Assembly: GCA_003280965.1 (NCBI GenBank)
Contig: QCDI01000016.1
Coordinates: 1 to 15,498, forward strand
Length of the DNA stretch: 15,498 bases
Source: Prochlorococcus sp. AG-355-B18
GTDB lineage: Bacteria; Cyanobacteriota; Cyanobacteriia; PCC-6307; Cyanobiaceae
Reading direction: 5' to 3'
A program made the translations under genes and the position numbers. Within the stretch, counting starts at the first letter, position 1. Every line of letters starts with the position of its first letter. This document shows, in pieces, positions 882-11,583 of the stretch. The notes below the pieces were generated by a model that made no database searches, was not told the origin of the DNA, and saw only the letters and a list, made by a program, of their open reading frames with translations.

Positions 882-1082
882 TTATAAAAAAGAAAAAATC
901 ATCATTTGTTTATATTTTGAGGAACCAATAACTAAATTTAAACTTGATATCTTATGGAATTTTTTATGCGTAAAATTACAAAATTCATTTTCATCTGAAT
1001 AGTTAATTAAATCAACTGCATTAATATTTGAATCAAACCACAGGTCATATTCTATGTAATTTGGCTCTGCAAAATAAGCCAT
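882..1082 (-). CDS. Small hypothetical protein (YFAEPN-x-IEYD-x-WFD family), paralog of 5318..5500
   Basis: Clear residue-level similarity to the ORF at 5318 over ~55 aa. Confidence 0.8.
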   Translation of the reverse strand: MAYFAEPNYIEYDLWFDSNINAVDLINYSDENEFCNFTHKKFHKISSLNLVIGSSKYKQMMIFSFL

Positions 1083-3681: not shown

Positions 3682-4071
3682 TTAAACTCTGCTATAACCT
3701 AATTTTGTTTTAAAGATCTTATATGGAACTCCTGTTCCATTCATGGCTGCAATAACTTTATCTCCCACAGTTCCGTAAAATTCAACAGAAAAATCAGTTC
3801 CTAGTTCAGCATGAGCTTCAAGATAAACACCAACTGCTGGATTAGCTAAATGAGCAAGTAAAGCATCATCATTCTTATAAACTTCTGACCATACAAAACG
3901 AAGAGGATCATCTGGATCTTGATCAAAAGTATGATGGAGCATACCTGGTTCTTCAGCCTCAACAGCTTTATCTGTCTTATCAGCTATTTCTAAATATTCT
4001 GCAACCTTGTCTTTCTTAACTTTAAGTTTTGCAAGAAGCATAAATGGAGTATCTGATCCAAAACTAGACAT
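3682..4071 (-). CDS. Antibiotic biosynthesis monooxygenase (ABM)-family / putative quinol monooxygenase-like protein
   Basis: Typical ABM pattern: EEPGMLHHTF...DPDDP..FVWSEVY.NDDALLAHLANP. Confidence 0.85.
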   Translation of the reverse strand: MSSFGSDTPFMLLAKLKVKKDKVAEYLEIADKTDKAVEAEEPGMLHHTFDQDPDDPLRFVWSEVYKNDDALLAHLANPAVGVYLEAHAELGTDFSVEFYGTVGDKVIAAMNGTGVPYKIFKTKLGYSRV

Positions 4072-4108
4072 AAAAAAAAAGACTCTTACGAGCCTGAGTG
4101 ATGGGGAT
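4072..4108 (-). promoter_or_regulatory. Leader of the ABM gene: AUCCCCAUCAC seed plus a terminator-like GNRA hairpin and U9 abutting the ATG
   Basis: Minus strand: ATCCCCATCACTCA-GGCTC-GTAA-GAGTC-TTTTTTTTT-ATG; extended -10-like TGtCATGAT at 4121-4113. Confidence 0.6.
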
Positions 4109-4173
4109 TTCTATCATGACAAATTAAACAGAAACAAACAACCCCATCAATAGTCCATTTTTATTACTTACAA

Positions 4174-4189
4174 ACACCATATGTAGTGC
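4174..4189. promoter_or_regulatory. NrdR-box-like palindrome ACACCATATGTAGTGC
   Basis: 13/16 match to the acaCwAtATaTwGtgt consensus; weaker copy ACCCCATCAATAGTCC at 4141-4156. Confidence 0.35.
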
Positions 4190-4200
4190 TAGTATTTTAT

Positions 4201-4262
4201 AAAAGGCTGGGTGATGGGGATGATCTAGCTTTTATATTGGGCGTGGCTAACGCCCTTTTTTT
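4201..4262 (+). ncRNA. Putative ~60-nt two-hairpin sRNA with GUGAUGGGGA loop and intrinsic terminator
   Basis: Extended -10 TGcTAGTAT (4187-4195); stem AAAGGCTGG/CTAGCTTTT (G-U pairs work only on +) around GTGATGGGGATGAT; terminator GGGCGT-GGCTA-ACGCCC-T7. Confidence 0.65.
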
Positions 4263-4410
4263 ATGGATATAACTTCTCAATAGCTTCTTTTTGTTCTTGT
4301 TTTTGTATTTCTTCAGCATCATAAAGAGGACAAGTGTTCTGATTAAGTGATGAGAAAAAAACACTCTTTTTAAAACGTTTGAAAAAAGGAGTAAGTAGTA
4401 AGCGTTTCAT
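4261..4410 (-). CDS. 49-aa hypothetical protein ending QKEAIEKLYP
   Basis: Part of track ORF 4261..4446; the ATG at 4410 avoids overlap with the upstream gene. Confidence 0.65.
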   Translation of the reverse strand: MKRLLLTPFFKRFKKSVFFSSLNQNTCPLYDAEEIQKQEQKEAIEKLYP

Positions 4411-4426
4411 TAAGTCTTCTCTTCCC

Positions 4427-4717
4427 TCATATGTAGCTAATTTCATATTGATTAATTAATTTTTTAAAAAGATCAACTCTTTTTTGTCCATTTTTTAATG
4501 GTCTAGACGAGTCAAGGACAGCTGCACAACATAGTTGCCAACAAGATTTTTCATCTAGGCCTAATTCCTCACATATATTTTTTGGAGCTTTAAAAACTGT
4601 ATTAATTTCTGCAATATGTTGAGTAGTTTCCCACAATTCCCCTTCAAGAAAGTCGAGTTCAATACTTGATAACAATTCAGTTGCTACGTAATCCTTGATT
4701 AGCTCAGTTAAATCCAC
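4427..4717 (-). CDS. Hypothetical protein (DLTELIKDYV...SCWQLCCAAVLD)
   Basis: Track ORF 4427..4750; GTG at 4717 is the probable start (uncertain). Confidence 0.75.
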   Translation of the reverse strand: MDLTELIKDYVATELLSSIELDFLEGELWETTQHIAEINTVFKAPKNICEELGLDEKSCWQLCCAAVLDSSRPLKNGQKRVDLFKKLINQYEISYI

Positions 4718-5176: not shown

Positions 5177-5317
5177 GGATTAAATGATTTCGCTCACTTC
5201 TTTCTAGCAACAAATCTTTGCGTACAAGTTAAAAATTCGGATACATGAATAAAAAAATAATCTTTATTTGGTATCGCATGTACCGTTTATATATTTTTTG
5301 GTAGCTATTAATTGAAT

Positions 5318-5500
5318 ATGAGTTATTTTGCTGAACCTAACCATATTGAATATGATGCATGGTTCGATGAAAATATCGACCCACTAGACTTAGTTAATTA
5401 TTCAAATGAAAAGGAGTTCAGTGATTCGGTACATGAAAAGTTCCATAAAATTTCAGCTCAAAATTTAACAATTGGATCTTCTGATAATTTTCACTGGTAG
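5318..5500 (+). CDS. Small hypothetical protein, paralog of 882..1082
   Basis: MSYFAEPNHIEYDAWFD... aligns with MAYFAEPNYIEYDLWFD..., which places the start at ATG 5318. Confidence 0.85.
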   Translation: MSYFAEPNHIEYDAWFDENIDPLDLVNYSNEKEFSDSVHEKFHKISAQNLTIGSSDNFHW

Positions 5501-11318: not shown

Positions 11319-11390
11319 GATATTTGATTTCCTTCTAACAGGATATAAAATTACATATTTAAAGTCTATTTACTCATAAACCTAGAATAC

Positions 11391-11583
11391 GTGAATTCGG
11401 GGATTTCTCTCGATAATTTCAGTCCCTGTTGTCGCTAGTAATTATAAAGCGAAGTCTTATCAGACTAATTGATTGAACTTTAATTTTCGAATAATCCCAT
11501 TCTCAGGAATACGCTTCCTATATTTTGGAATTTGCTAAATTTCAGGCGGACTATCAATCATTTAGATTGCCTCCGAACTCAAC
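11391..11583 (-). ncRNA. ~190-nt structured RNA, probably the manA RNA motif
   Basis: Closing helix TGAGTTCGG/CCGAATTCA, inner helix TGATTGA/TCAATCA, four or five hairpins and two crossing pairings; locally GC-richer intergenic DNA. The manA name comes from recalled architecture and size. Confidence 0.7.

Follow-up and report, generated by a model that had tools for sequence, protein, structure and literature searches.

A multicopy cassette of two divergent, complementary RNAs in Prochlorococcus and its putative link to the repressor NrdR and the sigma factor RpoD4

In the stretch of 15,498 nucleotides from Prochlorococcus sp. AG-355-B18 analysed here (the window), positions 4072–4267 form a multicopy cassette of the genus which lies in front of varied genes and carries two divergent, complementary small RNAs. 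The 1.58-Mb genome contains three copies of the seed motif GTGATGGGGAT, two of them in the window and the third at the start codon of the sigma factor RpoD4. On balance we favour the reading that the cassette belongs to a three-part RNA circuit which is placed under the dNTP-sensing repressor NrdR and gates RpoD4. The RNAs appear to be already named, whereas the proposed wiring, that is target, partner and regulator, is new.

The two seeds are a direct repeat identical at 14 of 15 positions, CTGAGTGATGGGGAT at 4094–4108 and CTGGGTGATGGGGAT at 4207–4221. The repeat pattern, which was derived from the repeat itself, has two matches in the window, and none of 200 shuffles reaches two. Each RNA is preceded by an extended −10 element, TG-T-CATGAT at 4121–4113 on the minus strand (6 nt before the seed) and TG-C-TAGTAT at 4187–4195 on the plus strand, the latter recognised in the sequence and in the alignment; TG-n-CAT(G/T)AT recurs in nearly all of 72 two-arm cassettes. 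A scan for −35/−10 promoters called no promoter in the cassette region. Terminator-like hairpins face outward at 4239–4255 (+) and 4095–4080 (−), and a 15-bp duplex including one G–U pair is predicted between the two RNAs. The initial annotation of this DNA had described the repeat, both terminators and both −10 elements, which are confirmed, as well as this predicted pairing. Its proposal of two complementary divergent RNAs is supported: both seeds are intact in 75 of the 85 two-arm cassettes, and a published start site exists for the minus RNA (see below). It had overlooked a third CCCCATCA at 4142–4149 and the palindrome 4174–4189, which belong to a pair of NrdR-type boxes between the two promoters. 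The element TGACAAAT flanks the minus promoter at 4118–4125, and in small low-light-type genomes (L053, L056–L058, L062) a conserved TGACAAAT...TTGACA is found 5 nt before the −10 element of the plus-type RNA; it is possibly the site of a second regulator. Four assemblies from seawater RNA libraries span the whole stretch and are uninformative on strand, ends and level, and the loose assembly ends at 4072 and 4267 mark paralogous flanks only.

The plus RNA (4202–4262) has a predicted length of 61 nt, in agreement with the approximately 60 nt expected at first, and folds well (z −4.9) into a hairpin with a GGGG loop (4216–4219), which resembles the RpoD4 start region, followed by the terminator 4239–4262. 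The seed motif had been assigned to the loop as a whole; only the GGGG is displayed there, and its other nucleotides form part of the stem. Covariation across strains, one of the checks proposed for this locus, is found for the hairpin. In 36 hand-picked sequences, from which the structure had also been named, 86% of the cells are paired with 17 two-sided changes, a value reached by 0 of 500 shuffles, and slid controls stay at or below 49%. The compensatory changes fall in the lower stem, and the seeds show no two-sided compensatory change in the 85 two-arm copies. Six of the seven minus-seed variants are C-to-U changes which retain a G–U pair, such transitions being also the commonest mutations; a pair is lost in two of the three plus-seed variants, and one of these two occurs in the second copy of this genome. 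Among the start regions of the genome the plus RNA has no standout target and ranks the rpoD4 start at 264. A small convergent ORF (4261–4446, minus strand; 49–73 aa among relatives) ends within the plus-RNA terminator. That the hairpin is a mere terminator of this ORF, which would have spoken against a plus RNA, is unlikely, because the arm is kept with other convergent ORFs or none.

On the minus strand the short RNA (4072–4106) consists of a free 5′ C-rich seed (seed 4094–4108), which has complements in the plus RNA and at the start of RpoD4, and an intrinsic terminator (4072–4095) with a 6-bp stem and a U9 tract; its fold has a z of −4.0. As initially noticed, the U9 directly precedes the ATG of a gene with an ABM domain (3682–4071, minus strand; Pfam PF03992, E 1.4e-12), which serves as cargo 3′ of the minus leader only in this copy. 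That the minus arm encodes a short leader peptide was considered and discarded: the U-tract varies in length (7–10), and this shifts the frame of the peptide against ABM. A longer minus form of about 80 nt (4072–4150, fold z −5.6) is possible in view of the published length of Yfr22. Its 5′ G-run is predicted to pair back on the seed and to hide it, so that only about −3 kcal/mol would be gained with the plus RNA.

Both RNAs can be related to published transcripts of strain MED4. A start site is listed 33 nt upstream of PMM0367 (PMC5607370), and in the relative locus L086 a 33-nt leader has the first C of the seed as its first nucleotide, with TG-n-CATGAT 6 nt before it. The distance from PMM0366 to PMM0367 is 745 nt in the tables of the same study, and 744 nt separate the upstream gene from ABM in L086. 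The matching distance and the leader geometry indicate that PMM0367 is the ABM gene, support the short leader (start at 4106 in the window) and equate the plus RNA with Yfr23. A minus start near 4108 had been suggested; the short leader is thus borne out, with 4106 as the likelier first nucleotide. In island 1 of MED4, Yfr23 is encoded on the strand opposite to PMM0367, within 64–287 nt upstream of that gene, the same arrangement as here, and a transcript antisense to Yfr23 is reported at MED4 348681–348904 (PMC7368042). The published lengths are 67 nt for Yfr23 and 80 nt for Yfr22 (supplementary tables of PMC7368042). Position, strand and length of the plus RNA (744 against 745 nt; 61 nt predicted against about 67 nt published) fit Yfr23 by geometry, not by sequence identity, and the early caveat that the sRNA could be a named Yfr was well placed. 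For Yfr22, one conserved solo locus per strain is described together with paralogues of about 73% beside Yfr23, and in one strain a 73% Yfr22-like match lies 20 nt from the Yfr23 match (PMC7368042). The same pattern is found here: a solo minus-arm copy at C1:241448 shares 73% identity with the window arm across 41 nt. Judged by the lengths in the literature and by geometry, again not by sequence identity, the minus RNA therefore fits a member of the Yfr22 family. The start site at the ABM locus implies a minus RNA of 33–35 nt versus the 80 nt published for Yfr22, and in two start-site tables of PMC5607370 there is no start for the plus RNA, for Yfr22 or for an 80-nt form.

Other named RNAs fit less well. 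No Rfam family matches the cassette, including the Yfr8, Yfr13, Yfr17 and Yfr19 models; Yfr13, Yfr17 and Yfr19 are located by Rfam elsewhere in this genome. On account of length, position or a separate Rfam locus, Yfr11/16, Yfr13, Yfr17 and Yfr19 were set aside, and Yfr103 was excluded as a multicopy RNA of 290–328 nt versus 35–90 nt for the RNAs here. Voigt 2014 is said to be the paper naming Yfr22 and Yfr23, and their complementarity may already be noted there. No function of either RNA was found in print, the supplements in the parts searched hold no sequence carrying the seed, and in open full text (subscription papers being outside the scope) there was no main-text mention of Yfr22/Yfr23 together with Prochlorococcus. 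Elsewhere in the window a Yfr8/9 RNA is found at 11358–11583 (Rfam RF02360, 262 bits), which accords with a Prochlorococcus genome of the high-light type, as well as two similar small ORFs in opposite orientation and of no Pfam family (882–1082, minus strand; 5312–5500, plus strand).

The genome-wide seed scan that had been advised yielded the one further GTGATGGGGAT at the GTG-ATG start of a 339-aa protein (C3:56023), behind an AGGAGG. This protein is a cyanobacterial RpoD-family sigma factor; the published rpoD4/PMM1697 primers match its gene at 19/19 and 20/23 positions and at the published 102-nt spacing, and judged by its sequence the gene is rpoD4, encoding a group 2 sigma factor. The genome has three minus RNAs, and by duplex energy the rpoD4 start region ranks first of 1637 for every one of them. 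When accessibility is included it ranks 5, 6 and 2 of 1639 for the three seeds and first when these are summed. A conserved predicted pairing over the start codon of the target is what is expected of a trans-acting sRNA that represses translation; the ranks of 2–6 with accessibility speak against it. A codon-degenerate search of 151 genomes of the family returned 51 matches, 50 of which are the RpoD4 start with an identical core. Codons 2–5 of rpoD4 are invariant in 31 of 31 loci, whereas control codons have 3–6 synonyms each (18 loci), and three of the codons 2–5 are rare codons in this genome. An ORF beginning MMVVEETLNK on the minus strand of contig C2 is a possible second target of the solo minus RNA, whose seed ranks the start region of this ORF level with rpoD4. 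It has been published that rpoD4 mRNA peaks at the light–dark transition, when the cells replicate (PMC2921402), and that in S. elongatus RpoD4 sets cell size and shows a pulse at division (bioRxiv 2023.06.28.546855). A PMM1697 leader–gfp fusion has also been published, on which Yfr1 had no regulatory effect. Apart from this negative Yfr1 test, the literature listings, subscription papers being outside their scope, contained no sRNA acting on rpoD4.

In most of 30 loci the rpoD4 start region itself folds into a GGGG-loop hairpin like that of the plus RNA, with a stability no greater than that of shuffles (z −0.8). As the same loop and stem are found in the rpoD4 mRNA and in the plus RNA, the hairpin could also be a protein site: a protein would hold the rpoD4 mRNA, the plus RNA would sponge the protein, and the minus RNA would neutralise the sponge, a logic for which CsrA/CsrB is the model. 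Decoy-type copies are numerous and a similar hairpin is present in unrelated phage contigs, as such a scheme would allow. Nevertheless, both the mRNA and the decoy are predicted partners of the short minus RNA, with energies of −12.9 kcal/mol for rpoD4 versus −8.6 for the plus RNA, and no candidate protein was identified, so that we regard a protein site as unlikely.

The distribution of the cassette points beyond the ABM gene. With 3900–4450 as the query, matches were obtained in 186 of 200 genomes from the genus, 4072–4267 being the commonest partial match among the matches listed. This genome holds a second two-arm copy (C1:82339–82529, 87%) besides the solo minus arm. Among 72 high-light-type two-arm cassettes, a sample enriched for ABM loci by the choice of loci, the cargo is ABM in 40, a DUF3303 ORF in 21, another ORF in four and none or other in seven. 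Copies with the minus arm alone are directed towards the 3′ end of a convergent gene and, where they have no downstream gene, retain the seed. These observations bear on the possibility that the cassette is a local attenuator only, in which the plus RNA opens the leader terminator for whatever gene lies behind it, ABM included, and the match to RpoD4 is a coincidence. The layout of an attenuator is indeed present, since the terminator stands between ABM and the start site, which in the case of the ABM orthologue lies in the seed and 33 nt upstream of the gene, and the U-tract abuts the ATG. In a dimer model, moreover, the predicted pairing within the leader terminator drops from 0.87–1.0 to 0.13–0.75 once the decoy is bound; the opening by the plus RNA is a matter of this model only. 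On the other side, the cargo varies among copies, the seed is kept in minus-only copies without a downstream gene, and the RpoD4 site is invariant at silent positions. We thus consider attenuation as the sole function rather improbable, and it may hold as a second one. For the same reasons, variable cargo, minus-only copies and a conserved trans partner at the RpoD4 start codon, the self-contained ABM switch of the initial annotation is not supported.

A strict seed-plus-palindrome pattern is found in 43 of 401 genomes of the family and 11 of 64 genera, and its reversed control gives 0. Seed-only searches retrieve the same terminator-plus-seed and hairpin RNAs, often paired, also from genomes of 2.1–3.0 Mb and high G+C content; relatives of the cassette occur in genomes of marine Synechococcus and Cyanobium size. 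In high-G+C members of the family (L162:1430–1660) a decoy-type RNA lies just past the 3′ end of pyrB with a box pair spaced 15 bp. Some genomes carry a minus-type RNA with seed and terminator between a DUF3288 gene and trpD (L144:1490–1550, L152, L164, L168, L172), without NrdR boxes; it is possibly an attenuator or the ancestral locus. Outside the family, seed matches in 150 genomes across the phylum looked coding or due to chance by eye, a weak test because many of these genomes are non-photosynthetic. The cassette is absent from the viral contigs and phage records searched. Eight viral contigs (L259–L266, for example L265:5860–6140; L265 carries terminase and portal genes) share a structured non-coding element of about 200 nt which contains the 18-nt start of the decoy and the GGGG-loop hairpin. 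It has no Rfam match, an NrdR-like pair is present in only one of the eight contigs, and it might be a viral decoy or else a new phage RNA without relation to the cassette.

Between the divergent promoters lie the two NrdR-type boxes, box 1 at 4141–4156, which includes the third CCCCATCA, and box 2 at 4174–4189, 17 bp apart. The conserved positions of NrdR boxes are C4, A6, A8, T9, T11 and G13 (PMC13584703). Box 2 has all six of them and overlaps the TG of the plus promoter; C4, A6, T11 and G13 are present in both boxes of the window and of 84 of 101 cassettes, which had been selected for box 2. In these 84 the second box is at 16–18 bp in 73 and at 24 bp in 11, and most cassettes without the two-box pattern are one lineage with an A at position 11 of box 1. 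Binding of NrdR in vitro has been reported for linkers of 14–18 and 24–27 bp with a preference for 15–16 and 25–26 (PMC12051234). Over all 51 decoy-type hairpins outside the genus the spacers are 15, 18, 24, 25 and 27 bp, so that across lineages they keep the helix phase (15–18 or 24–27 bp). The linkers vary in sequence and not in length class. When hairpins were chosen by seed alone, the box pair was found upstream of 27 of 40 decoy-type hairpins, two of which are likely chance matches, versus 92 of 4000 random windows. In this genome the three cassette copies are the top three of 164 box pairs. The minus-only copies keep their box pairs as well (16 of 16), which suggests that NrdR may repress both RNAs.

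The genome contains nrdR and a like box at nrdJ. With a matrix made from nrdJ boxes only (10 boxes) the three copies rank 2–4 of 344, after nrdJ itself; a strict matrix of nrdJ pairs holds just two boxes and is uninformative. Conversely, a matrix seeded on 4174–4189 recovers sites before cob-dcd-thyX (rank 4 of 18), before nrdJ (rank 6) and over the nrdR start (rank 9). Upstream of nrdJ, a cassette-type box occupies a fixed position in 27 of 30 loci, with a partner box in only 5 of 30. In this genome neither the nrdJ nor the dcd-thyX promoter passes the strict two-box test, each pair missing a key position. The box over the nrdR start codon (C6:24920) would allow autoregulation. Before the cob-dcd-thyX operon (C6:85136) the pair is spaced 31 bp, in a promoter region common with a divergent gene which we take to be CRP/NtcA-like. 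From the box pattern and spacing we regard the pair as a putative NrdR operator, where binding and dATP/ATP-dependent repression would take place. It is scarcely probable that the RNA circuit exists as proposed and the palindromes are sites of another regulator or overlapping promoter elements: the spacers of 17–18 and 24 bp are at the edge of the preferred 15–16 and 25–26, the canonical targets here show weak partner boxes and no NrdR test in these cells was found in the literature, but the cassette-box matrix leads to cob-dcd-thyX, nrdJ and nrdR at the ranks given, the box before nrdJ is the same one at a fixed place, and the linkers are free in sequence and constant in length class.

When compared with known systems, Yfr23/Yfr22 of MED4 are alike in the 67-nt length of Yfr23, in adjacency and in strand and position relative to PMM0367, and the 80 nt of Yfr22 would correspond to the possible long minus form; the comparison is by geometry only, as PMC7368042, in the parts consulted, gives no sequence, target, partner or regulator. 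Yfr1/Yfr10 and the Yfr2 family (PMC2518516, PMC6778093) are likewise neighbouring and multicopy with complementary C-rich and G-rich motifs. The analogy to Yfr1/Yfr2 with another seed, drawn at the outset, holds for the layout and the lack of a common seed; in the cassette, the G-rich RNA reproduces the start site of a single mRNA. The regulator of Yfr1/Yfr2 is of the GntR type (PMC6191309), that of the cassette is predicted to be of the NrdR type. The known NrdR regulon (PMC13584703, PMC12051234) shares with the cassette two 16-bp boxes with C4, A6, T11 and G13, helix-phase spacing and promoter overlap; the genes putatively regulated here are small RNAs and not reductase operons. In the literature covered (titles and abstract openings, subscription papers being outside the scope) no NrdR-controlled sRNA was found. 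Target-mimic RNA sponges include chb/ChiX and SroC/GcvB, and rnTrpL is an attenuator-derived RNA acting in trans. As in these systems, a decoy would titrate an sRNA and a terminated leader would act in trans, whereas decoy and sRNA of the cassette share one promoter region and one putative operator, and a sigma factor would be the target.

For the circuit we suggest the following course. The minus RNA of the Yfr22 family would pair with the start codon region of rpoD4 in the cell and block its translation. The plus RNA, Yfr23, copies the RpoD4 start in sequence and in fold with its GGGG loop and would act as a decoy titrating the minus RNA; at loci with a gene behind the leader, such as ABM in the window, the decoy could also weaken the leader terminator. 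At high dATP, NrdR on the box pair would shut the decoy promoter and probably the promoter of the long minus RNA too. When dNTPs are in demand, the decoy would be made, the minus RNA taken up and rpoD4 freed, so that RpoD4 would be translated. Because box 2 overlaps the plus promoter, the decoy should rise together with nrdJ when dNTPs are needed; if NrdR represses both RNAs, a pulse or a threshold instead of a simple switch may result, and the net direction of control would depend on it.

More tentatively, and with somewhat less than even confidence, the whole can be read as a replication checkpoint of picocyanobacteria at the level of RNA, in which NrdR reads dATP/ATP and acts through a start-codon mimic and an antisense RNA, the division-linked RpoD4 would be translated only with dNTP synthesis on, the cassette copied into genomic islands would put genes such as ABM under the same timing, and the seed in some phage contigs might be a viral decoy. 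Two named, functionless Prochlorococcus RNAs would thereby gain a precise target, a partner and a regulator. If the proposal is true, NrdR extends from a repressor of reductases to the control of a sigma factor via small RNAs, and there would be a mechanism for the dusk timing of replication and division in cells without a full clock. This suggests a link between the supply of DNA building blocks and the cell cycle in the commonest photosynthetic bacteria of the ocean.
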